Positions 2,297-53,243 of a stretch of 64,000 bases of DNA are shown here, one piece after another. This stretch comes from an uncultured Actinomycetes bacterium. Its GTDB lineage: Bacteria; Actinomycetota; UBA4738; HRBIN12. The stretch spans positions 63,091 to 127,090 of the forward strand of contig CAYUSA010000001.1 of NCBI GenBank assembly GCA_964447335.1, given 5' to 3'. The translations under genes were made by a program, and so were the position numbers. Position 1 is the stretch's first letter, and the number at the start of each line of letters is the position of its first letter. The notes beneath the pieces were generated by a model. That model had not been told where the DNA came from, searched no databases, and saw only the letters and a list, made by a program, of their open reading frames with translations.

Positions 2297-4000
2297 ATGG
2301 GCCGGCGTGCACGCGTGCCGAAGGTACGAACGACGATGGTGCAGGAGGGTGTGCTCGAGCTTCCCCGGGTCGACGCGCGTCGGCGTTGGCCGGCCTGGCT
2401 GTGGTTCCTCTCCGGGTCGCTTGCGGTGGCGGGCGTCCTGCCCCTGGTGCCGTGGGCCGCACGGGTGCGGCTGTACGAGGTCGTCTCCGTTGCCGGCGTC
2501 GTCGCCGCGTTCGTCGGCATCCACCGCGCGCGGCCCGAGCGGCTGCTCGCGTGGCAGGCGCTGGCCGTCGGGACCGCCTGCATCTTCGCCGGGGACGTGA
2601 TCTTCGACCTGTATCCAGCGCTCCGGCAGATCCTGGCTCCGTTCCCCTCCGCTGCCGACATCCTGTGGCTCCCCGGCTACGCGATGCTGGCCGTCGGTGG
2701 ATGGATGCTGTTCCAGATCTCGGGACCAGGCGGACGGCGAGTCGGGTGGATCGACGTCTCCATCGCCGGCGTCGCCCTGGTCGCGGCCCTGTGGGTGTTC
2801 TTCGTGGATCCGCAGCTGCGAGTGGGTCGGTTCGACGAGCTGGACATCGTGATCGCTGCGTATCCCCTGGTCGACATCTTCCTGATCTCGCTCGCGTGCC
2901 GATTCCTGTTCGTCGCCCGCCCGTGGGAGGTCGGCCTGCGGCTGTTCACGGTCGGCCTGGGCGGGCTGCTGTTCGCCGACCTGTGGTACTCGACCGCGCT
3001 CGCGAGGGGCATCACCCAGCCGGCCTGGCCGGTCAGCGTGGGGTGGCTGCTGTGGCCGATCGCCCTTGGGACGGTTGCGCTGCATCCATCCATGAAGACC
3101 CTTGGCTCCGACCTCACCGCCGAGCGAACTGGCTCGGTCCCCAGGTCACGGGTGTGGATGCTGGCCGTACTGGGGCTCGTGCCGGCGCTCGCGTGGGTGC
3201 AGGCCGAGCTCCTGGGGGTTCCGGTGGACGGCGATATGGTGCTGCTCCAGGGCATCGTGTCCGCCCTCATGCTGTTCCGCGTGGGTGGCCTTCTCCGCGA
3301 GGTCGCGGCGCACCGCGCTCGGTTGGCGGCTCGAGAGGAGGAGCGCGCGCGGCTGCTCGAGCGCCTGCACGCCGTCGCCGAGGAGGAGCGCGTGGAGCTC
3401 TCGCGGGAGTTGCACGACGGTCCGATCCAGCACCTCGCGGGGATCGAGCTCGGGCTCGAGCGAGTGCAGATGCGTCTGGCGGCAGGCGACGTCGAGCGGG
3501 CGGCCGCCATCGCCGGCCAGTTGCAGGCGCAGCTGCGCGAGGAGGTCATCGGGCTGCGGCGGCTCATGGCCGACCTGCGCCCGCCGATCCTCACCGAGCG
3601 CGGGCTCGCGGCGGCACTCAAGGATCACATCGACGCGCTCGGTCGCCGGACGGACCTTCGTGTGGCGATGCAGGCCACACTCGACCAGCGGCTGGAGCCG
3701 GACGCCGAGGCCGTCCTGTTCCGGGTCGCGCAGGAGAGCCTGTCCAACGTCGTCCGGCATGCCCGAGCGAACCACGTGTGGGTCTGGGTCCAACGCCTGG
3801 ACGGCCAGGTCGAGCTCACCGTGCGTGACGACGGGTTGGGATTCGAGCCCGAGACGGTCGCCGAGCGGACCGATCGGCTCGGCCTGGTCTTCATGAGTGA
3901 GCGCCTCGCGATGGTCGGAGGCACGCTCGAGGTGCACTCGCGGCCGGGGTCCGGCACGGTCGTGCGCGCACGACTGCCCGTCGGAACGGAGGCGGCGTGA
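2297..4000 (+). CDS. membrane sensor histidine kinase, NarL-partner type (HisKA_3 + HATPase_c)
   Basis: Polytopic N-terminal membrane domain, then the dimerisation/His box ELHDGPIQHLAGIELGLE and a C-terminal ATPase domain (RDDGLGFEPE...MSERLAMVGGTLEV). An alternative start is the Met near 2336. Confidence 0.75.
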   Translation: MGRRARVPKVRTTMVQEGVLELPRVDARRRWPAWLWFLSGSLAVAGVLPLVPWAARVRLYEVVSVAGVVAAFVGIHRARPERLLAWQALAVGTACIFAGDVIFDLYPALRQILAPFPSAADILWLPGYAMLAVGGWMLFQISGPGGRRVGWIDVSIAGVALVAALWVFFVDPQLRVGRFDELDIVIAAYPLVDIFLISLACRFLFVARPWEVGLRLFTVGLGGLLFADLWYSTALARGITQPAWPVSVGWLLWPIALGTVALHPSMKTLGSDLTAERTGSVPRSRVWMLAVLGLVPALAWVQAELLGVPVDGDMVLLQGIVSALMLFRVGGLLREVAAHRARLAAREEERARLLERLHAVAEEERVELSRELHDGPIQHLAGIELGLERVQMRLAAGDVERAAAIAGQLQAQLREEVIGLRRLMADLRPPILTERGLAAALKDHIDALGRRTDLRVAMQATLDQRLEPDAEAVLFRVAQESLSNVVRHARANHVWVWVQRLDGQVELTVRDDGLGFEPETVAERTDRLGLVFMSERLAMVGGTLEVHSRPGSGTVVRARLPVGTEAA

Positions 4001-4440
4001 GCGAGGGGCGGGTGCTCGTCGCCGACGACGACGGCCTGGTGCGCGAGGTCGTGCGCGAGCTGCTCGAGGACTATGGGTTCGACATCGTCGGCGAGGCCGA
4101 GGACGGCTCCGTCGCGGTCCGCCTCGCCGGCGAGCTGCTGCCCGACGTCGTGCTGATGGACATGCGGATGCCCGTGATGGACGGCATCGAGGCGACGGCC
4201 GAGATCCGCGGCCGGCAGCCGAACGTCCAGGTCGTGATGCTCTCGGCCTACGACGACGAGGGGTTCAAGCAGGACGCCGAGCAGGCCGGGGCCCTGTGCT
4301 ACCTCGTGAAGGGCATGGGCGGCGGGCTGATCCGGGACGTGCTCCGCTCGGCCGTGGACACGGCGCGAGGGCTGGCGCTGCGAGGGATGGCCGCGGAGGC
4401 GAGCGGGCCTAGCGGGCGCGCTGGACCTTGCCGGCCTTGA
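3997..4440 (+). CDS. single-domain response regulator (receiver only, no output domain)
   Basis: Receiver-domain motifs [25 protein letters not shown] and YLVKG. The 147-aa protein ends without a LuxR helix-turn-helix. The start overlaps the kinase stop, and the 3' end overlaps convergent rpmB by 32 bp. Confidence 0.7.
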
Positions 4441-4600
4441 TGCAGCTCGTGCACGCGTGAACGCGCTTCGGGGTTCCGTTCACCACGGCGCGGACCCGCT
4501 GGATGTTGGGGTTCCACCGGCGCGGGCTCCGGCGGTGGGAGTGGGAGACCTGCATGCCGAAGAACGGCTTCTTCCCGCAGATGTCGCAGACGGCTGCCAT
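4409..4600 (-). CDS. rpmB: 50S ribosomal protein L28
   Basis: [63 protein letters not shown]. The ORF-track N-terminal extension is rejected and the start is placed at the ATG at 4598-4600. Confidence 0.93.
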
Positions 4601-4748
4601 GGCCGAGCAAGGGTAGCAGACGACCGGAGGCGGCCAACCCACGATCCTGAGCTCGGGGCTGGGCCCGCGTGCGCGCTCGGTCGGCCCGGCGTACGTACCG
4701 CTCGACGCCTGAGCGGAACGCGGATGACCCTCGTGGTAGAACCGACCC

Positions 4749-6983
4749 ATGCTTCCACCATGTTCTTCGGAGCGCCCGGTGGCGCTGACGCTCGCCTCGC
4801 CGGTCGAGGCGATCGATCGGCAGCTCGCGAACCGCCGCACCGGGTTCCGGACCAAGGGAGACCCGGCGCACGAGGTCCTCTCAGCCTCGCTCGGCATCCA
4901 GATCGTGGGGCAGCTGTTGCACCACTACCCGCGCCGGTACATCGACCGCTCGCAGGTGGCCAGGATCCGCGACCTCAAGATCGGGCAGCAGGCGACCGTG
5001 ATCGCGACGGTGAAGCGCGCGGTCAAGCGCCAGACCCGGCGTCACCAGACGATGGTCACCGTCACGCTGTACGACGGCTCCGGGTACCTGGATCTCACGT
5101 TCTTCAACCAGCCCTGGATGGCCTCGATGTACAAGGAGGGACACGAGGTCGCGGTCTCGGGCGTCGTGCAGCTCTACAAGGGTCGGCTCCAGCTCGCGAA
5201 CCAGGAGGTCGAGCTCCTCAAGGGCGACGAGGCCGACCTGGTCCACACCGGTCGCATCACGCCGGTCCACCGCGCGACCGATGGCATCACGACGCGCACG
5301 ATCCGGGAGCTGGTGCATCGCGCGCTCGAGCAGCTCCGCACGATCGCCGACCCGATGCCGCCCGACGTCGTCGCGGCCGAGCGGCTCTCCGCGTTCGACG
5401 GCGCGATCCGCCAGGTCCACTTCCCCGCCTCGCAGGAGGAGCGCCGGGCGGCCGAGGAGCGCCTGAAGTTCGACGAGCTGTTCACGCTCGAGCTCGGCGT
5501 GGCGTTCCGCAAGCACCGCGTCGAGGCCGCCCAGACCGGCGTCCGGCACGAGCCGGACGGGGCCCTCGTCCGGCGCCTGCTCGCGACGCTGCCGTTCGAG
5601 CCGACCGGCGCGCAGACGCGCGCGATGGGCGAGATCGACACGGCGATGGCGCGCCCCCGCCCGATGAACTTGCTCCTGCAGGGCGACGTCGGCTCGGGCA
5701 AGACGCTCGTCGCGCTCCACGCCGCGCTCGTCGCGATCCAGTCCGGGCACCAGGCCGCGATCATGGCCCCGACCGAGGTCCTCGCGGGGCAGCACTTCCG
5801 GTCGATGGCGGCGCTGCTCGGCCCCTTCGGCGCGATCCCGTACCTCGAGCTCACGGGCGCGCCGGATGACGGGCCGCAGAGCTCACTGCTCGAAGGACCC
5901 GAGGACGTACCCGCCGAGGCCGGGGTCACGTACGCGCTCCTCACCGCCGGGGTCACCGGCAAGGACCGGGTGCGGATCCTCGAGGGCATCGCGGGCGGCG
6001 ACGTCGACCTGGTCGTGGGGACCCACGCGCTCGTCCAGGAAGGGGTCGCGTTCGCCGACCTCTCGCTCGCGGTGATCGACGAGCAACACCGCTTCGGCGT
6101 GCACCAGCGCATGGCACTGAAGGGGAAAGGCGGCTCGCCGGACGTCCTCATCATGACGGCGACGCCGATCCCGAGGACCCTCGCGCTCACGTACTACGGC
6201 GATCTCGACGTCGTCGTCCTCGACGAGATGCCGAAGGGCCGGCAGCCGGTCGAGACGAAGATCGCGCGCACCAAGCAGGAACGCGACGCCGCCTACGCGC
6301 TCATACGCCGCGAGGTCGAGGCCGGACGGCAGGCGTTCGTGGTCTGCGCCGCGATCGACGAGGCGAACAAGAGCGAGGTCCGCGCCGCCGAGGCGGAGGC
6401 GAAGCGGCTTGCCGAGGACGTCTTCCCCGACCTCTCGCTCCACCTGTTACACGGCCGCATGCGTCCCGCCGAGAAGGAGCGCGTGATGGAGGCGTTCCGC
6501 TCGGGCGAGCACCACCTGCTGATCTCGACCACCGTGATCGAGGTCGGTGTCGACGTGCCGAACGCGACGGTCATGCTCGTCGAGAACGCCGAGCGGTTCG
6601 GACTCGCGCAGCTCCACCAGCTCCGGGGCCGGATCGGCCGCGGCGAGCACGCCTCGTCCTGCGTGCTCTTCGACGAGTCGAAGCAGGACAACGAGGAGGC
6701 CCGCGCCCGCCTGGACGCGATGGTCCGCACGACCGACGGCTTCGAGCTCGCCGACGAGGACCTGCGGCTCAGAGGTGAGGGCACCCTCTTCGACGTGAAA
6801 CAGTCCGGCATGCCCGACCTGAAGCTTGCGCGCCTGGCCGAGGACCTCGAGCTCGTCAAGCGCGCCCGCGCCCGTGCGTTCGCCGTGATCGACGAAGACC
6901 CGTCCCTCGAACGGCACCCCGGCCTGCTCCTCGAGCTCCGCTCGCGCTTCGAGCGCTCGATCGAGTGGCTTTTCCACTCCTGA
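4749..6983 (+). CDS. recG: ATP-dependent DNA helicase RecG
   Basis: 744 aa with a wedge-domain N-terminus, helicase motifs GDVGSGKT and [10 protein letters not shown], and the C-terminal [12 protein letters not shown]. Confidence 0.92.
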
Positions 6984-7013
6984 TGCTCGCCCGGCGGATG
7001 GGCCGCGGATACC

Positions 7014-10000
7014 ATGCGCGTAGATGAGTCCGTGGAAGTGCAACACGTGACGCCCGACCCTGGCAACTCGGCCCCCGAGCCGGGGGCCGGAGCCGGGGGG
7101 TCCTCAGCGCCGCCGGCGCGTCCACCCCGCCCCGGCGTCGCGCGCGTCTGCGCGGCCGTCGCCGCCCTCCTCGGCGGCCTCGTCCTCGTCGGCTGGGCCC
7201 TCGGCATCGAGGTGCTGAGGAGCCCGCTCCCCGGCGAGGTCTCGATGAAGCCCAACACGGCCCTGTCGTTCCTGCTGCTCGGACCTGCGCTCCTCCTGCT
7301 CCTCGTCGGGAGGGCGGAACGCCGCCTTCGCGCCGCCGGAAGGCTCCTGGCCCTTGCTCCCGTGATCGTCTCCCTGCTCACGCTGGCGGAGTACGCGTTC
7401 GACCGTGACCTCGGGATCGACGAGCTGCTGTTCCGCGACACGACGGCCGCGGTTGCCACCGTCGTGCCGGGCAGGCCGGCGCCGTTGACGGCCGTCTGTT
7501 TCCTGCTGCTCGGGTCGGCGCTCCTCGTGCTCGATCGTCGACGCGGCGCAGGTCTCGCGCAGGTGCTCGGATCGGTCGCGGGCTTCGTGGGGCTCCTCGG
7601 GCTCCTGCCGTACCTCTACGGCCTGCGGTCGTCCTCGGGGCTCATCGCGCGCGAGACCCAGATGGCGATGCACACGGCGGTGGCGATGGTCCTCCTCGGA
7701 GTGGGCGTGGTGCTGGCTCGTCCGGATCGGGGGCCGATGGCCTTCGTCGGCAGCGACACGATCGGGGGGAGCCTTGCCCGGCGCCTGCTGCCCGTTGCGG
7801 TTGGCCTGCCCGTCGCCGCCGGCTGGCTGGCCGTGGGGGGCCAGCGCTTGGGGCTGTACGACCCCGGCTTCCGCGTCTCGGTCGTGGCGACCGCGAGCGC
7901 TGCCGTCCTCGCGGTGCTGACGTGGGTGGGGACTCGGTCCGCCCACCGCTCGGACCTCGCACGCAGGCAGGCGGAGCGAACGCGCGTGGACCTGTTCCGC
8001 GCCAATCCCAGCGCCGGGTGGGTCACCCGCATGTCCGATGGTCTGTTCGTCGACGTCAACGAGGCGTTCGCCCAGACCTTCGGCCGGGCCAGGGAAGACC
8101 TGATCGGCCGGACTTCCGTCGAGCTCAACATCTGGGCGGATCTGGGGGAGCGCGAGGCCGTGATGCGGATGCTTCGCGAGCAAGGGACGGTCGAGGGTAT
8201 GGAAGCGCACCTCCGCGACACCAACGGACGTTCGTTCCCCGCCCTGTTCGCGGCGAGGGTCGAGGAGATCGACGGCGAGCCGCACGTCGTGGGCTCGCTC
8301 CTGGACATATCCGAGCGGAGGCGCGCGGATGAGGAACGGGAACGGTCCGCGAGGCGTCTCGAGGGGCTGAACGCGATCGGTCGCGACATCCTGGGCGCCC
8401 GATCGACGGAAGAAGTGACTCGCGTGGGCCTCGCGCGCCTGCGCGAGCTGGTCCCCTGCATGCGGGCCTCCCTCGCCCGGTTCGACCCGGCGACGCAAGA
8501 GCTGGTGATCCTGGCTCTGGACGCGGAGGGGGAGACCGAGGTCGGGATCGGCGCGCGCTTCCCCCTCACCGCGGCCGGCCCAACGGACAGGCTCCGGCGC
8601 GGTGAGATCAACCGGATCCCCGACACGCTGGAGGTGCGGGACCCGTCACCGTCGGTGCGTCGATTGATCGAGGAGGGTGTACGGATGTACGCGAACGTAC
8701 CGATGGTGGCCGCGGGGGAGCTGATCGGCACCATCAACCTGTCGTCCGCAACGCCGGGCGGATTCGCAGAGGAGGAGCTCGATGCCACCCGGGAGGTGGC
8801 CGACCTCCTCACCGTGGCGCTGGTGGAGTCGGACCTCCGGGACGAGCTGCGACGGCACGCGGAGGACCTGGAGCAGCGGGTGGCCGAGCGGACCGCGGCT
8901 CTGTCCGAGAGCGAGACCCGCTGCCGGTCGCTCCTGGCCAACGCCCCCGACGGGGTCCTACTCGTCGACCCGGCGGGGGTGATCGCGTTGGCGAACGACA
9001 CGGCCGCGACGCTCTTCGGCTACGAGGTGATCGAGCTTCACGGGCTGCCCGTGGAGGTGCTCGTGCCCGAGTCGCTCTGGGCGACCCACGGGAGGCACCG
9101 GGAGGAGTACTCCACCGAGCACGTCGCTCGACCCATGGGAACGGGACTTGCGCTCCGCGGACGGCGCAAGGACGGGACGGAGTTCCCCGCCGACATCTCC
9201 CTGAACTCGATCCTCCCCGACAACGCCCACGGCGGGCCGAGCGCGATCGCATTCGTTCGGGACGTCACGGAGCGGGAGCGGATCGAGGAGGCGATCGTCG
9301 CGGCCAAGGAGGAGGCCGAACGGGCGAACCGGGCCAAGGACGAGTTCCTCTCGCGGATGAGCCACGAGCTCCGCACGCCGTTGAACGCGGTCCTCGGGTT
9401 CGCCCAGGTGCTCGAGATGGAGGATCTACCGCCCGAGCAGCACGACAGCGTCCGGCAGATCCGCATGGGAGGGCAACACCTGCTCGAGCTGATCAACGAG
9501 GTCCTGGACATCTCGCGGGTCGCGACCGGGGATCTCTCGCTCTCGCTCGAGCCGGTCGGGGTGAGCGAGACGCTCCGCGACGTCGTCGACCTCGCCCAGC
9601 CGCTCGCCGCCGACCGGGGCATCACGCTGCGGCTGGAGGATGCCAGCGGGCTCCACGTCCTGGCCGACCGCCAGCGGCTCAAGCAGGTCCTGTTCAATCT
9701 GCTCTCCAACGCGATCAAGTACAACCGCGAGGGGGGCAGTGTGGACGTCTCCTGGGCCGAGGCGCCGGAGGGGAAGCTCCGGATCCACGTCACCGACACG
9801 GGTCCCGGGATCCCCCCCGAGCGGATGGGGCAGGTGTTCGTCTCCTTCGACCGTCTGGGGGCCGAGGCGGGCGGCGTCGAGGGGACCGGCCTCGGGCTGT
9901 CCTTGTCGAAGGCCCTGGCCGAGGGGATGGGGGGAACGCTCGAGGTGAAGAGCGAGGTGGGGGCCGGCTCGGTCTTCACGGTCGAGCTGCCGCTCGCCGA

Positions 10001-10445
10001 GCCGCCCGACCAGCGCTACGAGCGGGAGCCCCGTGAGCACGACCGGATGGAGGAGCGCGGGCAGGCCCGGACCGTGCTGTACGTGGAGGACGACCTGTCC
10101 AACCTCCGGCTGATCGAACGGATCCTCGACCGACGGCCGGGGGTCCGCCTGCTGACCGCGATGCAGGGGCGCCTCGGGATCGAGCTCGCCCGAAAGCACA
10201 AGCCGGACCTCATCCTGCTCGACCTGCACCTGCCGGACATCGGCGGGGAGGAAGCGCTCCGCTGGCTCCGGGGAGATCCCGCCACGGCGGGCATCCCCGT
10301 CGTCGTGATCTCGGCGGATGCCACCCAAGCCCAGATCGAGACGCTGCTCGCCGCGGGGGCGCGTGAGTTCGTGACCAAGCCGATCGACGTGAAGCGGTTC
10401 CTGCAGGTCGTGGACGACGTGTTGCGAGGGCCCGAGGATGGGTGA
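7014..10445 (+). CDS. hybrid sensor histidine kinase (membrane domain, PAS/GAF/PAS, HisKA, HATPase_c, REC)
   Basis: 1143 aa. The HisKA motif is MSHELRTPLNAVLGFAQVLE; the ATPase G-boxes are DTGPGIPPE and GTGLGLSLSKALAEG; the C-terminal receiver carries TVLYVEDD, LILLDLHLPD and VTKPID. The true start may be downstream of 7014. Confidence 0.8.
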   Translation: MRVDESVEVQHVTPDPGNSAPEPGAGAGGSSAPPARPPRPGVARVCAAVAALLGGLVLVGWALGIEVLRSPLPGEVSMKPNTALSFLLLGPALLLLLVGRAERRLRAAGRLLALAPVIVSLLTLAEYAFDRDLGIDELLFRDTTAAVATVVPGRPAPLTAVCFLLLGSALLVLDRRRGAGLAQVLGSVAGFVGLLGLLPYLYGLRSSSGLIARETQMAMHTAVAMVLLGVGVVLARPDRGPMAFVGSDTIGGSLARRLLPVAVGLPVAAGWLAVGGQRLGLYDPGFRVSVVATASAAVLAVLTWVGTRSAHRSDLARRQAERTRVDLFRANPSAGWVTRMSDGLFVDVNEAFAQTFGRAREDLIGRTSVELNIWADLGEREAVMRMLREQGTVEGMEAHLRDTNGRSFPALFAARVEEIDGEPHVVGSLLDISERRRADEERERSARRLEGLNAIGRDILGARSTEEVTRVGLARLRELVPCMRASLARFDPATQELVILALDAEGETEVGIGARFPLTAAGPTDRLRRGEINRIPDTLEVRDPSPSVRRLIEEGVRMYANVPMVAAGELIGTINLSSATPGGFAEEELDATREVADLLTVALVESDLRDELRRHAEDLEQRVAERTAALSESETRCRSLLANAPDGVLLVDPAGVIALANDTAATLFGYEVIELHGLPVEVLVPESLWATHGRHREEYSTEHVARPMGTGLALRGRRKDGTEFPADISLNSILPDNAHGGPSAIAFVRDVTERERIEEAIVAAKEEAERANRAKDEFLSRMSHELRTPLNAVLGFAQVLEMEDLPPEQHDSVRQIRMGGQHLLELINEVLDISRVATGDLSLSLEPVGVSETLRDVVDLAQPLAADRGITLRLEDASGLHVLADRQRLKQVLFNLLSNAIKYNREGGSVDVSWAEAPEGKLRIHVTDTGPGIPPERMGQVFVSFDRLGAEAGGVEGTGLGLSLSKALAEGMGGTLEVKSEVGAGSVFTVELPLAEPPDQRYEREPREHDRMEERGQARTVLYVEDDLSNLRLIERILDRRPGVRLLTAMQGRLGIELARKHKPDLILLDLHLPDIGGEEALRWLRGDPATAGIPVVVISADATQAQIETLLAAGAREFVTKPIDVKRFLQVVDDVLRGPEDG

Positions 10446-12780
10446 GGCGGCAGAGCGACCGTCGACCGCGAGGGATCGCCTTTGGCGGTGGTACCTGGGA
10501 TCGGTCTTGTTCTTGGCGGTGCTCTTCGTCCCGCTGCGGGGATCCGACCGGGCGGTCGCCATCCTCAGCGTCGGAGGGATCACCTCGATGCTCGTGGCCA
10601 TCCCGGTGGGGCTCCGTCTCCACCGTCCGGCCGACGTGCGGCCCTGGTACGTGATCCTCGCCGGGATGGCGGGGTCCGTCGTCACGAACGCGATCTCGTA
10701 CTCGGCGAACACCCGGGCCGCCACGCCGGCGTACCCCTCCGTCGTGGACGTCCTCTACGTCGGAGCGTACGTCGTCGTCGTCGCGGGGTTCGCGCTGTTC
10801 GTTCGCGCGAAGATCGCACGGGGTGACCGGGACGGCTTCATCGACGCTCTGATCGTGACCGCGGGGCTGGGGGTGCTGTCCTTCGTCCTCCTGATCGATC
10901 CGTACCTGGACGACGCGAACCTTTCCGCTGTGGCCCGCGCGACGTCCATGTCCCACCCGCTCCTCGAGCTCGCGCTCCTGGGTATCGCCGCACGCCTCGT
11001 ATTCCTGCCGGGGAGGAGGCCCGTCGCGCTCTGGTTCGTCTGCCTGTACGCCGCCCTGTCGTTCGCCGGAGACGCCGTCTACGGCGTCCAGGTCCGGGCC
11101 GAGACCTTCTCGTTCGAGAGCGGGGCCAACGCGCTCTGGATCGCCTCGTTCGCTTTCTTCGGCGCCGGTGCGCTCCACCCGTCGATGCGGGAGCTGACGG
11201 AGCGCCGCAGAGGAGCCGTGTCGGGGAACGGGACGGCCCGACTGGTGGCCTTGGGGGTCATGGCGATGCTGGGCCCCGCGACGTTGGCGATCGGCTGGGG
11301 CCATGCCTCTGGGCACTTCCGTCAGGTTGGCGCGATCTCTGCGGCCGTGGTCGCCCTGGTCCTCGGCCGCATGTGGATGCTGACCGTGGGCCTCGAGACG
11401 CACCGCAGGGCCCAGCAGGCGCTCAGAGAGAGCGAGGAGCGGTCCCGGCGCCTGTCGGACGCGACCTTCGAGGGGGTCATCGTGATCGCGGACGGGAGGA
11501 TCGTCGAGGCGAACCGGGCGTTCCTCGAGATGTTGGGGCTGGAAGCCGAGCAGGTGGTGGGCCTGGCTCCGGAGGAGCTGATAGCGCCCGAGTCCGTCCC
11601 GACGATCTACGAGCACCTGCGCTCCGGGACCGAGGAGCCGTGGGAGATGGAGGTCGTTCTCCGTAACGACCGCCGGATGTGGCACGAGTCGAGGGCGAGC
11701 ACCATCCCCTATGGCGGGTCGGAGGCGCGGGTGATCTCGATCCGCGACATCACGGAGCGGAGGCGCGTGGACGCCGCGCTCCGGGAGAGCGAGCAGCGGT
11801 TCCGGACCTTGTTCGAGACGGCGCTCGACGCGATCGTGGTCATCGATGCTGAAAGCACGATCGTTCAGGCGAACCCGGCCGCTTCCGAGCTCGTCGGGGT
11901 CTCGACCGACCGGATGGTCGGACGCGGCTTCGGGGGGCTCATCGCCCCCGGCTTCGACGCCGACGCCGCACGGGAGACCGCCCACGGGATCGAGGGGTTC
12001 CGCGTGGACATCCCGATCGTGGCGGCCGATGGGACCGAGCGAAAGGTGGAGGCCACCGCCGGCCTGCTCCCCGACGGGAACCTGGTGATCGTCGCCAGGG
12101 ACGTCTCCGAGCGCCGGCGTGCCGAGGAGGAGCTCCGCCGGGCGGAGGACCGATACCGCTCGCTGGTGGAGCGGCTCCCCGGCGCCGTGTACGTGGATGT
12201 TCCCGAGGGCGGCTTGGCCGGGTACACGTCGGTCTTCATCAGCCCCCAGGCCGAGACCCTTCACGGCTACGCGCCGGAGGAGTTCCTGGCCGATCCCGAT
12301 CTCTGGCCCCGGATCCTTCATCCCGAGGACCGCGAGCGGGCCCTGGAGGCCGACGCTCGTCACTGGAAGACCGGCGAGCCCCTGGACCAGGAGTTCCGCG
12401 TGATCGCCAAGGACGGCCGGGTGGTGTGGGTCCGGGACCGGGCCGTCCTGTTGCGCGACGACCAGGGCCGGGCCCTGATGTCCCAGGGGTTCCTGACGGA
12501 CATGACGGACCAGAAGGAGGCGGAGACCCTGCGCGACGCCAGGGACGAGGCCGAGCGCGACAACCGGGTGAGAAGCGAGTTCCTGTCGCGCATGAGTCAC
12601 GAGCTCCGGACGCCGCTGAACGCCATCCTCGGGTTCGGCCAGGTGCTGGAATCATCGTCCCTCGCGCCGGAGGACCGCGACAGCGTGGAGCGGATCATGG
12701 AGGGCGGCCGCCGGCTGCTCGAGCTGGTCGACGACCTGCTCGAGATCTCGCGGACCGGCGGCGGCGCGGGGCGGGGCTAG
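10438..12780 (+). CDS. PAS-rich sensor kinase paralog lacking the ATPase domain (truncated)
   Basis: Membrane domain, three to four PAS repeats, and a HisKA box MSHELRTPLNAILGFGQVLE. It ends 20 aa after the dimerisation helix (LLELVDDLLEISRTGGGAGRG*) with no HATPase_c. The start overlaps the previous gene's stop. Confidence 0.7.
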   Translation: MGEAAERPSTARDRLWRWYLGSVLFLAVLFVPLRGSDRAVAILSVGGITSMLVAIPVGLRLHRPADVRPWYVILAGMAGSVVTNAISYSANTRAATPAYPSVVDVLYVGAYVVVVAGFALFVRAKIARGDRDGFIDALIVTAGLGVLSFVLLIDPYLDDANLSAVARATSMSHPLLELALLGIAARLVFLPGRRPVALWFVCLYAALSFAGDAVYGVQVRAETFSFESGANALWIASFAFFGAGALHPSMRELTERRRGAVSGNGTARLVALGVMAMLGPATLAIGWGHASGHFRQVGAISAAVVALVLGRMWMLTVGLETHRRAQQALRESEERSRRLSDATFEGVIVIADGRIVEANRAFLEMLGLEAEQVVGLAPEELIAPESVPTIYEHLRSGTEEPWEMEVVLRNDRRMWHESRASTIPYGGSEARVISIRDITERRRVDAALRESEQRFRTLFETALDAIVVIDAESTIVQANPAASELVGVSTDRMVGRGFGGLIAPGFDADAARETAHGIEGFRVDIPIVAADGTERKVEATAGLLPDGNLVIVARDVSERRRAEEELRRAEDRYRSLVERLPGAVYVDVPEGGLAGYTSVFISPQAETLHGYAPEEFLADPDLWPRILHPEDRERALEADARHWKTGEPLDQEFRVIAKDGRVVWVRDRAVLLRDDQGRALMSQGFLTDMTDQKEAETLRDARDEAERDNRVRSEFLSRMSHELRTPLNAILGFGQVLESSSLAPEDRDSVERIMEGGRRLLELVDDLLEISRTGGGAGRG

Positions 12781-12811
12781 CACGGCCTGTACGGACGGCG
12801 GGACGCCCGGC

Positions 12812-12883
12812 GCCTACCTCACGAAGCCGTTCGACGTGAAGCGATCCCTGGGCGTCGTCGGAGGTTCCCTCGGGGGCGCGTAG
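12812..12883 (+). pseudogene. receiver-domain C-terminal remnant (AYLTKPFDVKRSLGVVGGSLGGA*)
   Basis: A short peptide in a different frame, right after the truncated kinase. It matches the receiver tail of the 7014..10445 gene (FVTKPIDVKRFLQVV). Confidence 0.5.
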
Positions 12884-12893
12884 GGCCGAGTCC

Positions 12894-14096
12894 TCACCCG
12901 GCGCCCGGCGCTGAGCCCTCGGCGGGAGCCACGAGCCCACCGCCCGAGGTCGCGGTCGCCGGGACCCAGCACTCGACCGTCGTACCCTTCCCGGGCGCCG
13001 TGTCGACGCGCCACCAGCCCCCTGCGAGCTCGGCGCGTTCTCGCATCGCCTTGAGCCCGAGGTGGTGCGAGGTGAGCGACGGGGGTCGCTCGGGGTCGAA
13101 GCCCCTGCCGTCGTCTCGGACCGTGAGGCGGAATCCGTGGTCCGCCTCCTCCACCTCCACGGTGACGCTGGTGGCGCGTGCGTGCTTCGCCACGTTCGCG
13201 AGCGCCTCCTGCGCGATCCGGTACAAGAGCGTGCGCACCCCCAGCTCCGGTTCCTCCGTGATCCGCCGCTCGACGCGCCAGGTCCACCCGGTGTCGGGGG
13301 GCGTGCGCTCGAGGTACTCGGAGAGCGCCTCCGCCAGGCCACCCGAGTCGAGCGCGGAGGGGTGCAGCTCGAAGAGCATGCGTCGGAGCCGGTCCATGGC
13401 TTGATGCACGATCGCCTCGGTCGTCGCGAGCTCCGCGGCCTCCTCGGTCCCCTCGAGCTTGTCGCGGAGCATCTGGAGGCGCAGCACGGCCGCGACCATG
13501 GCCTGCACCGGGTCGTCGTGGATGTTGTACGCGATGCGCCGCTGCTCGTCCTCCTGCGCCGCCACGAGGCGCGCGAGGAGCAGCCGGCGCGTGTCCTGGG
13601 ACGCCCGGAGGTCCCGCAGGGCATCCGAGAGCTCGGCGGTCCGCTCCTCGACCAGCTGCTCCAGGTGCTCGGCGTGCAAGCGAACCTGGAGATGCAGGTC
13701 CCGCGTATGGAGCAGGTTCCGGATCCGAAGGACGGCCTCGACGGCATCGAACGGCTTGGTCAGGAAATCCGAGGCCCCAGCCGCGAGGGCCTTCCGCTTC
13801 GCCGCCTCCGTCACGTCCGCCGTCAGGACCAGCACCGGGAGGAAGTCCTCGGCCGGGACGACCTGGTGGAGGCCCTCGAGGATCTGGTGCCCGCTGACGT
13901 GGGGCATCAGCAGGTCGAGGAGGACGATGTCCGGCTGCCACTCGCGCACGAGCGGGATCGCCTCGCGCGCGTCGGTCGTCCCGTGCACGTGCGGGAACCC
14001 GGCTCCGTACAGCAATCGCTCGAGCAGGCGGACGTTCGGTTCCTCGTCGTCCACGATCAAGATCCGGTGGTCCGTCGGCGCGGTGGTCTCCGTCAT
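12894..14096 (-). CDS. hybrid response-regulator/histidine kinase (REC, HisKA_3, HATPase_c)
   Basis: N-terminal receiver (ILIVDDEE, DIVLLDLLMP, VLVLTAD, FLTKPFD), a coiled coil, the His box RIAYNIHDDPVQ, and an ATPase domain (ANVAKHA...TVRDDGRGFDP...GLKAMRERAELAGG). Confidence 0.8.
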   Translation of the reverse strand: MTETTAPTDHRILIVDDEEPNVRLLERLLYGAGFPHVHGTTDAREAIPLVREWQPDIVLLDLLMPHVSGHQILEGLHQVVPAEDFLPVLVLTADVTEAAKRKALAAGASDFLTKPFDAVEAVLRIRNLLHTRDLHLQVRLHAEHLEQLVEERTAELSDALRDLRASQDTRRLLLARLVAAQEDEQRRIAYNIHDDPVQAMVAAVLRLQMLRDKLEGTEEAAELATTEAIVHQAMDRLRRMLFELHPSALDSGGLAEALSEYLERTPPDTGWTWRVERRITEEPELGVRTLLYRIAQEALANVAKHARATSVTVEVEEADHGFRLTVRDDGRGFDPERPPSLTSHHLGLKAMRERAELAGGWWRVDTAPGKGTTVECWVPATATSGGGLVAPAEGSAPGAG

Positions 14097-14716
14097 GGTC
14101 GGTCCTCCTTCATCCGGCGTCGGCGAGGGTCTGGTCGAGGAGCTTGAGGAACCGCGCGACGTCGAGCGGTTTCGTCATGCATCCGCGAGCGCCCGCGGCG
14201 ACCAGCCGCTCCAGCTTGCTCCGGGTCGTGTCCGCGGTGAGCACGACCATCGAGGATGTGAGCGGTCTCCGGTTCCTCCAGCAGCTTCGAGAGCACGAGC
14301 TCTCCCGACATGTCGGGCAGGCGCAGGTCCAGGAGCACGAGGTCGGGGCGGGTCGTGCGCAGGTGTCGATGCCCAGCGCGCCCGAGGTGACGGCGAGCAG
14401 GTGGATGTGTGGGCGCCGCGTGAGGACCTTCTCGAGCAGCTTGACGTTCGTCGGGTTGTCCTCGATGTAGACGATGGTGGCCGGCCCGTCTCGGGAGCGC
14501 CTGGAACGCCTTGAGCGCCGGTGTCCTCTTGGGGGCCTCCAGGAGGTCGATGCGGAAGCTCGTCCCCCGGCCGGGCACGCTGCTGACGCGGATCGTCCCA
14601 CCTGTGGCCTCGACGAGACGCTTCGTGAGCGCGAGGCCGAGGCCAGCGCCGCGAACCGGGCCCGTCTCGGCGCCGAGCCGCTCGAAGGGGGAGACCTGAG
14701 CGACAGGTCCCGCCAT
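14093..14716 (-). pseudogene. frameshifted 3' fragment of a hybrid kinase (HATPase_c C-terminus plus REC)
   Basis: Homologous segments are split across three minus-strand frames: FERLGAETGPVRGAGLGLALTKRLVEATGGTIRVSS, TIVYIEDNPTNVKLLEKVL, PDLVLLDLRLPDMSGE and VVLTADTT...CMTKPLDVARFLKLL. There are no upstream HisKA or sensor parts. Confidence 0.65.
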
Positions 14717-14916
14717 GCGGAACGCAACTGCACACGCCCTCCTCTCTCTTCGCGGGCGCGGGATGTCGTTCCCGAGGACGCAACCCTAGCGCTTGGTTCC
14801 CCGGCTGCGAATAAGCCGAAGGTCACAGGTCTGCCGTCCCCTTTCCGGGTGATGCTCGATCCCGGGCGGGCCCCCACCGGCGTGAGCGACCCCGGGCTCC
14901 CGAGACGGCGCGGGCC

Positions 14917-16314
14917 GTGGGTGATAATGACCGTCCGGGACGGTCTCTCCAGGAGGGTCGGTTGAGGGACACGAGGCCGCACGAGCCTCGGGGAGCCATT
15001 CGTGGTCACGCCGGTAGCGGCGGTCGTGCTCTCCGGGCGGCGATCGTCTACGCGGTGCTGGGGGTCCTGTGGGTCCTGTTCTCCGACCGGCTCCTCGTGT
15101 GGCTGGTTCGCGACCCGCAGACGCGGGATGTGGTCCAGACCGCGAAGGGGTGGCTGTTCGTCTCGGTGTCTGCCGTGCTCGTGTACGGGTTCGTCCGGCT
15201 CGCCGAGCGGGCCGAGCGCCGTGCCGCTCGGGCCGAGGACTCCCTCCGGGCGAGCCAGGAGTGGCTTCGGAGCATCGCGGAGAACGTGACCGACATGATC
15301 TTCCGGTACCGGGTGGCGGAGCCGCAGGGGTACGAGTACGTGAGTCCCTCCTCGACCGAGATCACGGGTTTCACGCCGGAGGAGCACTACGCGGATCCCC
15401 GTCTGCCTTTCCAGATCGTCCACGGTGACGATCGGAGCGCGCTCGAGCGGCTGCTGTGCGGCGAGTCACGCGGCGAGCGCGTGCGCTTCCAGCGCAAGGA
15501 CGGCAGCACGATCTCGACCGAGTTCCGCGTGCGTGCGATCCTCGACGAGACGGGTCGGCCGGTCGCGGTCGAGGGGATCATTCGCGACGTCACGGCGCTC
15601 GCGCTCACCGAGCAGGAGCTGGAGGAGCGCGTTCTCGACTTCGGGAAGCTGGCCGAGGAACGGCTGGCGCTCATGCGCAAGCTCGTGCACGCGCAGGAGG
15701 AGGAGCGCCGGCGCATCGCGCTCGAGATCCACGACGGGATCGGCCAGGTGCTCACCTCGATCTCGCTCTACGCCTCGGATCTGCCGGAGGTCGTCCCCGA
15801 GGAGCACCGCGCCCGCGCCGAGAGGGTCCGCGAGCTCATCCAGCGTGCGATCGCCGACAGCCGGATGCTCGTCTGGAGCCTGCGTCCGCCGGACCTCGAG
15901 CGCCTGGGCCTGGTCCCGGCGATCCAGCACCTCGTCGAGAACCTCCTCGACCATGCGACGGAGCACCTCGACCATGCGACGGAGCACATCGATGTGCTGG
16001 ACGAGACCAAGGGCCGGCGCCTGACACCCGAGATCGAGACCGTGGTCTTCCGCATCGTGCAGGAGGCACTGAACAACGCGACGAAGTACGCGCACGCATC
16101 GTCCATCTCGGTCGTGGTGGCCATCCGGGACGGCGTGCTCTCCGCGGTGGTCGAGGACGACGGTCGTGGTTTCGACGTCGAGACCGTCGACACGTTCGGT
16201 GGCGTCGGTATGGGCGGGATGCGCGAGCGTGCGGACTTCGTGGGCGGTAGGTTGGTCGTCGAGTCGGCGAAGGACGTCGGCACCGTGGTCCGGCTGGAGG
16301 TCCCGATCCCGTGA
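14917..16314 (+). CDS. PAS sensor histidine kinase (HisKA_3 + HATPase_c)
   Basis: Two transmembrane helices, a PAS domain, the His box RRRIALEIHDGIGQ, and an ATPase domain (QEALNNATKYAHAS...VEDDGRGFD...GMGGMRERA). It contains an in-frame 21-bp tandem duplication (LDHATEH twice). The true start is probably downstream of 14917. Confidence 0.8.
   Translation: MGDNDRPGRSLQEGRLRDTRPHEPRGAIRGHAGSGGRALRAAIVYAVLGVLWVLFSDRLLVWLVRDPQTRDVVQTAKGWLFVSVSAVLVYGFVRLAERAERRAARAEDSLRASQEWLRSIAENVTDMIFRYRVAEPQGYEYVSPSSTEITGFTPEEHYADPRLPFQIVHGDDRSALERLLCGESRGERVRFQRKDGSTISTEFRVRAILDETGRPVAVEGIIRDVTALALTEQELEERVLDFGKLAEERLALMRKLVHAQEEERRRIALEIHDGIGQVLTSISLYASDLPEVVPEEHRARAERVRELIQRAIADSRMLVWSLRPPDLERLGLVPAIQHLVENLLDHATEHLDHATEHIDVLDETKGRRLTPEIETVVFRIVQEALNNATKYAHASSISVVVAIRDGVLSAVVEDDGRGFDVETVDTFGGVGMGGMRERADFVGGRLVVESAKDVGTVVRLEVPIP
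15947..15988 (+). repeat. perfect 21-bp tandem duplication (ctcgaccatgcgacggagcac twice) inside the kinase gene
   Basis: Direct reading of the sequence; it encodes LDHATEH twice. Confidence 0.85.
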
Positions 16315-16952
16315 GCGAGCGGCCCATCCAGGTGATGTTGATGGACGACCACAACGTCGTCCGCGAGGGCCTCCGGGCCCTCCTCGAGCGCCAGACCGAC
16401 ATCCGCGTCGTCGCGGAGGCCGGCACCGTCGCCGAGGCCGAGGCGGCCGAGGTCGAGCCCGACGTGGTCGTCGCCGACCTGGTGCTGCCTGACGAACGCG
16501 GCGCCGAGGTCGTCCGGCGCCTGCGCGAGCGATTCCCCCACTCGGCGATCCTGGTCCTCACGATGGTGGACAACCCGACCGACGTGCAGCTGTGCCTGGC
16601 GGCGGGTGCGAAGGGGTACCTGATGAAGGAGGCCGCGGGCGCCGAGCTGACGGACGCCGTGCGGGCGGTCGCTCAGGGACGCGAGTACCTGCAGCCGGCG
16701 CTCGGTGCGGTGCTCGCGCGGTGGCGCGAGGCACCCGGGAAGATCAGTGCGAAGGCGTCGGTCGACCTCGGCGAGCGCGAGCGCGAGGTGCTGCGCCTGA
16801 TCGCCCTCGGTCACACGAACGCCGAGATCGCGCGCCTACTGTTCCTGTCGGTCCGCACCGTCGAGAACCACCGCGCCAGCCTGATGCGCAAGCTCGGCGT
16901 GAAGACCAGGGCGGACCTGGTCCGGCACGCGACCCAGTCCGGTCTGGTCTGA
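16311..16952 (+). CDS. LuxR/NarL-family response regulator
   Basis: Receiver domain (VMLMDDH, VVVADLVLPD, ILVLTMVD, YLMK) plus a C-terminal LuxR helix-turn-helix (EREVLRLIALGHTNAEIARLLFLSVRTVENHRASLMRKL). The start overlaps the kinase stop. Confidence 0.88.
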   Translation: MSERPIQVMLMDDHNVVREGLRALLERQTDIRVVAEAGTVAEAEAAEVEPDVVVADLVLPDERGAEVVRRLRERFPHSAILVLTMVDNPTDVQLCLAAGAKGYLMKEAAGAELTDAVRAVAQGREYLQPALGAVLARWREAPGKISAKASVDLGEREREVLRLIALGHTNAEIARLLFLSVRTVENHRASLMRKLGVKTRADLVRHATQSGLV

Positions 16953-17012: not shown

Positions 17013-17567
17013 GTGCGGGTCGTCGCCGGCAGCGCGAAGGGTGTCCGCCTCGGCCCGGTGCCCAAGGGCGTGAGGCCGGTCTCCGACATGGCCCGCGAGG
17101 GCCTGTTCTCCAGCCTCGGCCCCCGGGTCCCCGGCGCGCGGGTGCTCGACCTGTTCGCGGGCACGGGCGCGCTGGGCATCGAGGCCCTGTCCCGCGGGGC
17201 CGCCGAGGCCGTGTTCGTGGACCGGGCCCGTTTGGCGACGGCGGCCATCCAGGAGAACCTCGAGCGCACGCGCCTGACAGACGAGGCTGTGGTCGTCGGC
17301 GTGGATGTGCGTGCCTTTCTCACGAGAGATGACAAGAACGGGGCTCCGTTCGACCTCGTGCTGGCGGATCCGCCCTACGAGCTCCAGGGCCCCGAGCTGG
17401 ACGGCGTGCTCGCCGACCTCGCCGACGGGTGGCTGGCGGCGCCCGGGTGGACGGTGGCCCTGACCCGCAGGAAGGGGAGTTCCACGCCTGTCATTCCGGT
17501 AGACTGGCTCGCTGCCAGGCGCCTGGTGTACGGCGACACCCTGGTGGTGCTCTTGCGGGAGGCATAG
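17013..17567 (+). CDS. rsmD: 16S rRNA (guanine966-N2)-methyltransferase RsmD
   Basis: GTG start. Motifs VLDLFAGTGALGIEALSRGA and LADPPY. Confidence 0.85.
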   Translation: MRVVAGSAKGVRLGPVPKGVRPVSDMAREGLFSSLGPRVPGARVLDLFAGTGALGIEALSRGAAEAVFVDRARLATAAIQENLERTRLTDEAVVVGVDVRAFLTRDDKNGAPFDLVLADPPYELQGPELDGVLADLADGWLAAPGWTVALTRRKGSSTPVIPVDWLAARRLVYGDTLVVLLREA

Positions 17568-26360: not shown

Positions 26361-26753
26361 ATGGCCAAAGCGGACATCTTGATCGTCGAGGACCATCCGA
26401 CGATGCGAGAGGCGATGCGTCTCGTGCTCGAGCACGAGGGGTTCGTGATCCGCGAAGCGGCCGACGGCCCGACCGCCCTCGCGATGGTGCGCGAGCAGCC
26501 GCCGGACCTGATGTTCCTCGACCTCAACATCCCCGGCGCGAGCGGCGCCGACGTCCTGCAGGAGCTGAAGTCCGACCCGATCACGGCGGGCGTCCGCGTG
26601 ATCATCGTGACGGCGACCGGCGAGGAGGGGCGGGACTTCGTCATCGCGCTCGGCGCCGATGAGTACTTCACGAAACCGTTCTCACCGACGGCGCTCCTCC
26701 GGACCGTGGAGCGCGTGCTCGACCTCGGTGGGGCGGCTTCCCCGACGACGTGA
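26361..26753 (+). CDS. single-domain (CheY-like) response regulator
   Basis: ILIVEDH, LMFLDLNIPG, IIVTATG and YFTKPF motifs; 130 aa. It sits inside a longer out-of-frame ORF-track entry. Confidence 0.75.
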   Translation: MAKADILIVEDHPTMREAMRLVLEHEGFVIREAADGPTALAMVREQPPDLMFLDLNIPGASGADVLQELKSDPITAGVRVIIVTATGEEGRDFVIALGADEYFTKPFSPTALLRTVERVLDLGGAASPTT

Positions 26754-52517: not shown

Positions 52518-53243
52518 ATGGGGAACGTGAGCCAGCAGACCGTGCTGGTCGTGGACGACGAGGAGGCGATCGCCGAAGCCGTCCGCGCCCGACTGCAGAG
52601 CGAGGGGTACGAGGTCCTCGTGGCGGGCGACGGGCCCGAGGCGATCGCGGTCTGCGACCGAGCGCACCCAGACCTCGTCGTGCTCGACCTCATGCTGCCC
52701 GGGATGGACGGCCTGGAGGTCTGCAAGCGCATCCAGCACGACCGGTGGGTCCCGGTCCTGATGCTGACGGCGCGCACCGAGGAGGCCGACAAGGTCGCCG
52801 GGTTCGCCGTCGGTGCCGACGACTACCTCACGAAACCCTTCAGCCTGCGCGAGCTCGCGGTGCGGGTCCGCGCGATCTTGCGCCGGGTCGAGCGCGTCGC
52901 CGCGGCGGAGTCCGGTTCGCCGGAAGAGCCGCTCGAGCGTGGCGGGCTGACGATCGACGCCGGCCGGCGCCGGGTCACGGTCGACGGCGAGGAGATCCCC
53001 CTCACGCCGCTCGAGTTCGAGATCCTGCTCACCCTCGCGCGCGAGCCCGGCGTGGTGTTCACGCGCGAGCAGCTGATGGACCGCGTCTGGGGATACCGCG
53101 ACTACGCGGGCGGACGCGTGGTGGACTCGCACGTCGCGCGGATCCGGCGCAAGCTTCGGGAGGACGGCAACGAGCCGCGGTTCATCCGGACCGTGCACGG
53201 CGTCGGCTACGCGTTCCGTGAGGACGAGGCGGCCGGGCGATGA
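52518..53243 (+). CDS. OmpR-family response regulator
   Basis: Receiver domain (VLVVDDEE, LVVLDLMLPGMDG) plus a winged helix-turn-helix (LTPLEFEILLTLA...VHGVGY). Confidence 0.88.
   Translation: MGNVSQQTVLVVDDEEAIAEAVRARLQSEGYEVLVAGDGPEAIAVCDRAHPDLVVLDLMLPGMDGLEVCKRIQHDRWVPVLMLTARTEEADKVAGFAVGADDYLTKPFSLRELAVRVRAILRRVERVAAAESGSPEEPLERGGLTIDAGRRRVTVDGEEIPLTPLEFEILLTLAREPGVVFTREQLMDRVWGYRDYAGGRVVDSHVARIRRKLREDGNEPRFIRTVHGVGYAFREDEAAGR

Follow-up and report, generated by a model that had tools for sequence, protein, structure and literature searches.

A probably composite and eroding cluster of two-component signalling genes between recG and rsmD in an uncultured Actinomycetes bacterium

Bacterial sensor kinase repertoires are known to expand by duplication combined with replacement of the sensor domain and with loss of the operon shared with the cognate regulator, and they differ between close relatives (Alm, Huang and Arkin 2006, PMC1630713). 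Other described systems to which the locus presented here can be compared are the GacS/RetS multikinase networks (PMC8498467; PMC8175716) and the truncated kinase ChrS_CA-fs of Corynebacterium glutamicum (PMC9491836). Here, we describe the interval between the core genes recG and rsmD in a 64-kb stretch of DNA (the window) from a metagenome-assembled genome (MAG) of an uncultured Actinomycetes bacterium. The interval (7014-16952) holds the two-component system (TCS) loci g2 to g7, of which g5 is a pseudogene (g5psi). All of them lie inside 10 kb, while the remaining 54 kb of the window contain five other TCS genes; the clustering of TCS genes between recG and rsmD is more than chance. In our analysis, the interval is probably a composite, remodelled and eroding TCS gene cluster of a Solirubrobacterales-like MAG, resident at the recG-rsmD junction and older than the species. 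As in the repertoires described in PMC1630713, the transmitter of g3 is of the g2 type joined to another sensor, the number of PAS units varies between orthologs, and g2, g3 and g4 have no adjacent DNA-binding regulator. Unlike in that study, a single core-gene junction is concerned here, the decay is explicit (a deletion relic, frameshifts and an insertion sequence (IS)-like element), and three relatives each carry a different lesion.

The gene map is based on a listing of open reading frames (ORFs), a frame plot of GC content per codon position, Pfam and tblastn; the plot cleanly resolved coding frames and strands in a window of about 71% GC. An earlier note on this DNA had listed the loci, among them a kinase without an ATPase domain (g3) and a frameshifted HATPase-REC remnant (g5psi), and had regarded two members as decaying. 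This inventory and the decay of g3 and g5psi are borne out, and the map changes in three respects: the minus strand carries g4 and the remnant, g2 likely starts at GTG 7047, and recG likely starts at 4779. The cluster would comprise a conserved cognate pair, g6-g7, and a 7.9-kb segment (approximately 6984-14880) with two operon-like units. In the first unit, g2 (7014/7047-10445, plus strand, 1143 aa) and g3 (10438-12780, plus strand, 780 aa) encode two membrane kinases that are probably translationally coupled, the g3 start overlapping the g2 stop by 8 nt. The second unit, convergent with g2-g3, would have read from the hybrid kinase gene g5 into g4, a REC-HisKA_3 kinase gene 13 nt further on. 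A scan of the island found no promoter-like sites and one terminator-like site, against 2.0 expected from shuffled sequences.

The left flanking core gene is recG (4779-6983, plus strand, 734 aa; Pfam RecG_wedge, DEAD, Helicase_C and RecG_dom3_C); its longest ORF begins at 4749, and the orthologs, of 734 aa, favour 4779. The right one is rsmD (17013-17567, plus strand, 184 aa; Pfam Cons_hypoth95 methyltransferase), with synteny in all relatives. We compared the interval with that of relatives whose recG is 73-91% identical, MAGs labelled Actinomycetota or Solirubrobacterales. In six of them, rsmD directly follows recG, namely L004 (recG 83%), L007 (79%), L009 (73%), L089 (88%), L090 (86%) and L091 (85%); L007 and L009 were the informative cases in a recG scan of a genome collection in which the matches listed were mostly distant homologs. 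Direct adjacency of recG and rsmD thus appears to be the usual and ancestral state of the lineage, and the six relatives, at 73-88% recG identity, indicate that nothing was replaced here, although the cluster had been thought to take the place of housekeeping genes. In L005 and L006 (recG 80%), a different kinase with PAS-PAS-HisKA_3 architecture precedes rsmD. In L003, the closest relative (recG 91%), orthologs of g6 and g7 lie between recG and rsmD, and in L174 (recG 80%), recG is followed by a g2-type kinase, a g4 ortholog and an intact g5. With these parts at the same site in L003 and L174, and a g2-g3 pair in L092, the proposal of a lineage-specific module is not supported. The comparison across recG-rsmD does confirm that the cluster varies between close relatives, and the same intact gene set at the same position was found in no relative.

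Based on blastn, window positions 4725-6996 correspond to L003 9948-12220, and 14917-24962 to L003 12240-22205. The breakpoints are located at 6996/6997 and 14916/14917, and, from blastn combined with local alignment, homology to the recG-stop region resumes at about 14881, which places the 7.9-kb g2-g5psi segment as missing in L003. Its right edge is marked by 14881-14916 (plus strand), homologous to the spacer between the recG stop and g6 in L003. Between the g5 remnant and this ancestral spacer lie 190 nt (14690-14880) for which blastn against all loci and the window gave self matches only.

In L174, the order is an ortholog of the kinase/receiver pair found upstream of recG in the window, then recG, the g2-type kinase and, on the other strand and reaching the end of the contig, g4 and g5; L174 is collinear with window 12815-14436 at 74% nucleotide identity. 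Its kinase is g2-type throughout (sensor 52%, HisKA-HATPase 60%, REC 65%), and we rejected the idea of a g2/g3 recombinant on account of the g2-type sensor, transmitter and REC. The same gene stops after HATPase, and its REC lies in another frame as a separate 120-aa ORF (L174 6440-6520), by natural split or frameshift.

L092 has g2 (70% amino-acid identity) directly followed by g3, again overlapping by 8 nt, but in a different genomic setting. Ahead of the two genes come two 3' fragments of recG (SGMPDLKL and RFERSIERLFHS followed by the stop) and the recG-g2 spacer, which in the window occupies 6984-7046 (plus strand) and which the alignment suggests to be a probable g2 promoter or leader. 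L092 9865-9971 aligns with window 6803-6826 and 6945-7020. The last 39 nt of recG and the spacer are identical at 75 of 76 positions, whereas the rest of the g2-g3 block is about 76% identical; over those 39 recG nucleotides, L003 departs from the window at 8 positions. Either constraint on a promoter/leader or a recent patch of recombination could explain the stretch. The L092 g3 contains a frame change and has two PAS units (L092 14278-15258) versus three in the window (11419-12100, with a repeat spacing of 357 nt). Additionally, it is cut within HisKA (15259-15456) by a sequence starting with TGTGGGG, with an ORF reading MSFVLYLVV...DIEILVLRHQLKVLRRKAGQP / DIEILVLRHQLKVLRR, in which the contig ends. 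We take this ORF to be the N-terminus of a DDE/rve-type actinobacterial transposase, a call that Pfam, NCBIfam and plasmid tblastn did not confirm.

Rates of change differ along the interval. By Nei-Gojobori estimates, the ratio of nonsynonymous to synonymous divergence (dN/dS) between the window and L003 is 0.13 for recG, 0.14 for g7, 0.18 for rsmD and 0.31 for g6; between the window and L092, it is 0.48 for g2 (0.39-0.61 by region) and 0.49-0.57 for g3. Evolution is clearly faster in the sensor kinases than in the genes beside them: g2 and g3 have values of about 0.5, and recG, g7 and rsmD of 0.13-0.18, in agreement with the rapid evolution suggested previously. In all-against-all amino-acid comparisons, g2 and g3 are 40% identical over PAS-HisKA, g5psi and g2 47%, g4 and g6 33%, and the REC domains of g4 and g2 40%. 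Since these identities (33-47%) are at family level, the loci are old paralogs and not the outcome of a recent duplication burst; the PAS, HisKA and REC similarity among them that the earlier note pointed out is present, but at this level only. The synonymous divergence (dS) from L174 is 0.63 for g4, 0.62 for recG and 0.70 for the upstream REC gene, and the equal values for g4 and recG suggest that the cluster co-diverged with the core gene, although dS is compressed at a GC3 (GC at third codon positions) of about 0.9, so that equal dS is weak evidence. The g2 N-terminus versus L174 does not enter these estimates, its coordinates having been misregistered. The history we propose is one in which relatives would have kept different subsets of the cluster, each with its own lesions, and many have kept none.

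A more recent origin, in which the 7.9-kb g2-g5 segment was inserted just past the recG stop as a lineage-specific island and the L174 and L092 copies were acquired separately, through recombination or horizontal transfer, at a hot spot, is possible but unlikely. It agrees with the absence of the segment in the five closest relatives whose contigs extend past recG, with a recG-g6 gap of only about 34 nt in L003, with the different kinase at the junction in L005 and L006, and with other variable inserts on both sides of recG. The L092 copy in its new context with a recG fragment, and a mosaic divergence of g2 (dS 0.2-0.5), also point in this direction. Against it stands the synonymous divergence of g4 and the upstream REC gene from L174, which matches that of recG. 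Moreover, no integrase, recombinase or transposase gene was found in or beside the island, where all coding-frame ORFs of at least 100 aa are TCS genes; the window has no tRNA or Rfam element, and tblastn of the L092 IS-like N-terminus against the window gave no match. GC (0.69-0.72) and GC3 (0.89-0.94) are alike in the island and the flanking genes, unlike the composition expected of a mobile island. A motif of about 20 nt, TGA(T/G)G.TCG..CCCGG.CG, found at each end of the segment, could speak for an insertion, but its score of 22 is within the range of shuffled sequences (20.1 +/- 2.7), and these flanking direct repeats, no better than shuffled sequence, are doubtful att sites.

Besides the compression of dS, several points weigh against an old, eroding resident cluster. 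In a neighbour-joining tree of recG, the window groups with L003 and L088, followed by L089 and L090 and then by L004, L091 and L174; on this tree, old residence requires at least four independent clean losses, and a history of gain by recombination, with at least two gains at the same junction, is about equally parsimonious. The L174 contig ends inside g5, before any point at which g6-g7 might follow. The IS-like sequence in L092 has no match in Pfam, NCBIfam or plasmid tblastn, the IS call coming from an N-terminal transposase motif. Finally, the functions proposed below are read from domain types and gene order alone. On balance, we lean towards an old resident cluster with erosion over a recent gain.

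The intact member of the first unit, g2, is a membrane hybrid histidine kinase. Pfam and transmembrane (TM) prediction gave the order of about eight TM helices, PAS, GAF, PAS, HisKA, HATPase_c and REC; the start at GTG 7047 is likelier from alignment with the L092 ortholog. The HisKA domain (residues 774-837, E 4e-18) contains the phospho-acceptor histidine in an H-box SHELRTPLN within the sequence SRMSHELRTPLN. The HATPase_c domain (residues 885-995, E 8e-29) has the ATP-binding motifs LLSNAIKYN, DTGPGI and GTGLGL, with N, G1 and G2 boxes. A C-terminal receiver (Response_reg, residues 1021-1133, E 1e-20) carries VEDD, LILLDLHLPD and TKPID, with the DD..D..K pattern of acidic pocket, aspartate and lysine. 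The ortholog P0242 is 70% identical in amino-acid sequence. The N-terminal region of g2 (window 7047-8030, about eight TM helices) repeats a motif three times (NTALSFLLLGPALLLL, LTAVCFLLLGSALLVL and HTAVAMVLLGVGVVLA), and shares this region with an L087 hybrid kinase (57% over 44 aa). Neither the g2 nor the g3 N-terminal sensor matched a Pfam family, and NCBIfam gave sub-threshold generic kinase matches only.

In contrast to g2, g3 is a truncated kinase. It has about eight TM helices of a type unlike that of g2, three PAS units and a HisKA domain at 712-774 of 780 residues (Pfam), after which the ORF stops within 6-9 codons (LLEISR, then TGGGAGRG and the stop), with no HATPase and no REC; the ATP-binding part of a hybrid kinase is absent. 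Downstream of g3, the out-of-frame region 12809-12883 (plus strand) translates to GAYLTKPFDVKRSLGVVGGSLGGA followed by a stop, which compares with the g2 tail AAGAREFVTKPIDVKRFLQVVDDVLRGPEDG and its stop. We consider it the relic of a REC alpha5 tail with the original stop codon: it is 82% identical to the g2 tail in nucleotide sequence, and its core matches the L174 kinase's REC tail, its best similarity, collinearly at 32 of 35 nt. Both HATPase and REC are present in P0002 (986 aa, 45% identity), a hybrid kinase and the nearest full-length homolog of g3. Because the REC tail and its stop survive out of frame, g3 must have lost about 277 codons (about 0.83 kb, HATPase and most of REC) by an out-of-frame deletion at approximately 12754-12808. 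Its sensor shows similarity to P0002 and to the multi-TM domain of the kinase encoded at 2297-4000 (25.6% over 220 aa, E 6e-10), and the simplest reading of its origin is that a g2-type duplicate was joined to a different sensor and would have lost its catalytic half later. We rejected two other histories. An inversion, in which the g5 HATPase-REC remnant would be the displaced 3' part of g3, conflicts with the fact that g3 and the remnant each keep their own tail and stop. Recent gene conversion between the HisKA regions of g2 and g3 (81% nucleotide identity over 113 nt) is no better, since all HisKA copies, orthologs included, are 70-81% identical, a family-level conservation.

It is improbable, though worth weighing, that g3 is not decaying but works as a pseudokinase, a DHp domain without ATPase that modulates g2 through heterodimers or shuttles phosphate in place of an Hpt domain. 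Its ORF is open over 780 codons with a GC3 of 0.92, the 8-nt overlap with the g2 stop is kept in L092, the H-box histidine is retained, and dN/dS against L092 is 0.5-0.57, below 1. There are precedents: a frameshift in the ATPase domain made ChrS a beneficial pseudokinase that forms heterodimers with HrrS (PMC9491836), and RetS influences GacS by way of the DHp interface (PMC8498467). Like g3, ChrS_CA-fs is an actinobacterial kinase that has lost the ATPase domain and kept sensor and DHp beside an intact paralog; of the features of such a CA-less pseudokinase, g3 shows that it lacks the ATPase domain and is translationally coupled to g2. Unlike g3, which is HisKA-type and has also lost REC, ChrS is HisKA_3-type, has a known regulator and was truncated in laboratory evolution (PMC9491836). 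A 393-aa REC-PAS-HisKA protein in L087 (7437-9865) likewise ends 8 residues past its HisKA, with a g4-like REC-HisKA_3-HATPase gene 41 nt on. Nevertheless, the REC tail and original stop about 30 nt downstream of g3, out of frame, mark the truncation as accidental and fairly recent and not as an evolved architecture. The L092 ortholog was disrupted independently, by the frame change and the IS-like insertion, and L174 has no g3 at all. No ortholog has the same truncation, against which selection on the truncated form could be gauged. Of the two readings, debris and pseudokinase, the first is favoured by the relic behind g3 and by the separate disruption of the L092 copy. Slightly less probable still is the fuller version, that g3 is in use and made together with g2 as a pseudokinase or DHp-only phosphotransfer partner, kinases ending at HisKA beside REC-HisKA_3 kinases being a recurring functional arrangement; equally doubtful is the role it would then have, tuning g2 through heterodimers or replacing an Hpt between the g2 and g4 receivers.

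The second lesion of the eroding cluster is in g5psi (14689-14110, minus strand), which consists of the C-terminal half of a HATPase domain and a REC domain. A tblastn search with g2 found both on the minus strand in alternating frames. There are three frame changes, near 14490, 14362 and 14251, and the 5' part is absent; what is left is a 3' hybrid-kinase fragment from the G2-box region of HATPase through the full REC, and upstream of 14689 nothing is left of HisKA or of the N-terminal part of HATPase. In the frame-corrected peptide, Pfam recognized Response_reg positions 1-110 of 111 (E 4e-18) and HATPase_c positions 61-107 of 111. Aligned with the L174 ortholog, a single open ORF over this region, the window lacks 1 nt at one frame switch and has 1 nt too many at another. 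With its frame disrupted relative to an intact ortholog and essential parts lost, g5psi is a pseudogene; its decay involved loss of the 5' part and three frameshifts, and that of g3 the out-of-frame loss of HATPase and most of REC.

After the g5psi stop (14112-14110) come an AGGAGG ribosome-binding site and, 13 nt later, the start codon of g4, a spacing from which we infer that g5 and g4 formerly made up an operon. The g4 gene (12894-14096, minus strand, 400 aa; REC, HisKA_3 and HATPase_c by Pfam) is convergent with g3, and its L174 ortholog is 72.7% identical in amino-acid sequence. Among the matches listed in a metagenome scan for g4, which were mostly distant homologs, a hybrid kinase gene adjacent to a REC-kinase gene recurs in the unrelated loci L087, L096, L108, L117, L121, L162 and L157. 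Also on the L087 contig are two hybrid kinases with a relationship to g2 and g3, along with REC-HD, OmpR-type, REC-Hpt and CheW genes.

It is hardly credible that faulty metagenome assembly or binning produced the g3 truncation and the g5 frameshifts: the window is MAG sequence, in which homopolymer or indel errors and chimeric joins are known, but the run-independent Logan assemblies L001 and L002 (SRR13723394 and SRR13723397) are 100% identical to window 4168-16283 and 9359-16283 (12.1 and 6.9 kb) without a mismatch or gap, both contain the lesions and the exact g3 protein, the damage takes several forms (a large deletion that left a relic, a truncated 5' end and frame changes at three separate places), and the genes flanking them are clean.

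The g6-g7 pair, the conserved part of the composite cluster, has the architecture of a NarL/LuxR-type system by Pfam: g6 (14917-16314, plus strand, 465 aa; two TM helices, PAS, HisKA_3 and HATPase_c) is a HisKA_3 kinase, and g7 (16311-16952, plus strand, 213 aa; REC and GerE) is the co-oriented adjacent NarL/LuxR-type response regulator. The g7 start overlaps the g6 stop by 4 nt (16311-16314), and the L003 orthologs are 74% (g6) and 88% (g7) identical in amino-acid sequence. The pair shares with NarL/LuxR-family pairs the exact architecture and overlapping coding regions, with low dN/dS against L003. The nearest NCBIfam models, MctS/MctR and MadS/MadR, were all below cut-off, and no equivalog passed. 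A perfect 21-nt tandem duplication in g6 (CCTCGACCATGCGACGGAGCA twice, 15945-15986) inserts LDHATEH, in frame, into the stretch that separates HisKA_3 from the ATPase domain; in L003, the g6 ortholog carries this unit once, in diverged form.

HisKA_3 kinases pair with NarL/LuxR regulators, and for this reason g4 may act on g7. In the wiring we propose from domain types and gene order, g2 would sense a membrane signal or one bound by PAS or GAF, autophosphorylate and, as g5 formerly did, pass phosphate to the receiver domain of g4. Both HisKA_3 kinases, g4 and g6, would then act on the NarL-type regulator g7, which would make up a small multikinase network with a single transcriptional output. 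The kinase-to-kinase step is supported by the adjacency of hybrid kinase and REC-kinase genes in unrelated loci; g4 itself has an N-terminal receiver and stood immediately downstream of g5. With g5 dead, g2 would be the sole intact HisKA-type kinase able to feed this receiver. As in the GacS/RetS networks (PMC8498467; PMC8175716), several kinases including hybrids are encoded together, plausibly with one output regulator, and the N-terminal receiver could put g4 under the control of another kinase. In contrast to those networks, there is no Hpt module here, and the system is known from its genes alone; similarity to GacS, RetS, LadS and PA1611 is at domain-family level only, with NCBIfam scores far below cut-offs. 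No island ORF had a Pfam match to Hpt, and tblastn of the REC-Hpt protein of L087 against the window matched REC regions only; this negative covers 64 kb, and Hpt domains are divergent, so that one could lie outside. With no Hpt found in the island or the window, the phosphorelay that had been suggested for this locus is unsupported in its classical His-Asp-His-Asp form, which needs an Hpt or a Spo0B/ChpT-like transferase to link two receivers.

Other signalling genes lie elsewhere in the window. Upstream of recG, between thiD and rpmB, a second variable insert (2297-4440) encodes a multi-TM HisKA_3-HATPase kinase (567 aa, 2297-4000) and a stand-alone receiver (147 aa). It is missing in L003, L004, L089, L090 and L091 and present in L174, where the receiver is 63% identical. 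The gap between rpmB and recG (L003 7278-9878; L005 5919-9416; upstream of recG in L004 and L089-L091) is variable as well: most relatives have a redoxin gene, L003 a PAS-GAF-HisKA_3 kinase and L005 an adenylate-cyclase/AAA/TPR protein, and the window has nothing. Further TCS genes are a regulator/kinase pair at 52530-54268 and a stand-alone receiver at 26364-26720, which is conserved in L004 and has an ftsY-like gene on one side and an ffh-like gene on the other.

The recG-rsmD locus is a clear but ordinary case of TCS turnover by duplication, domain shuffling and decay, a process already known, and no new kind of system. Its interest lies in being a compact natural example of sensor-kinase repertoire turnover beside a core gene in three related genomes. 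Duplication with sensor swap, gain or loss of PAS units, internal deletion with a datable relic and point frameshifts are seen together, as are an IS-like insertion, the nature of which is unconfirmed, and a translocation carrying a fragment of the neighbouring recG. Pseudogene-aware annotation of MAGs could be taught or benchmarked with this locus, which also suggests a testable wiring, in which a hybrid kinase would act on a REC-HisKA_3 kinase and the latter on a NarL-type regulator.

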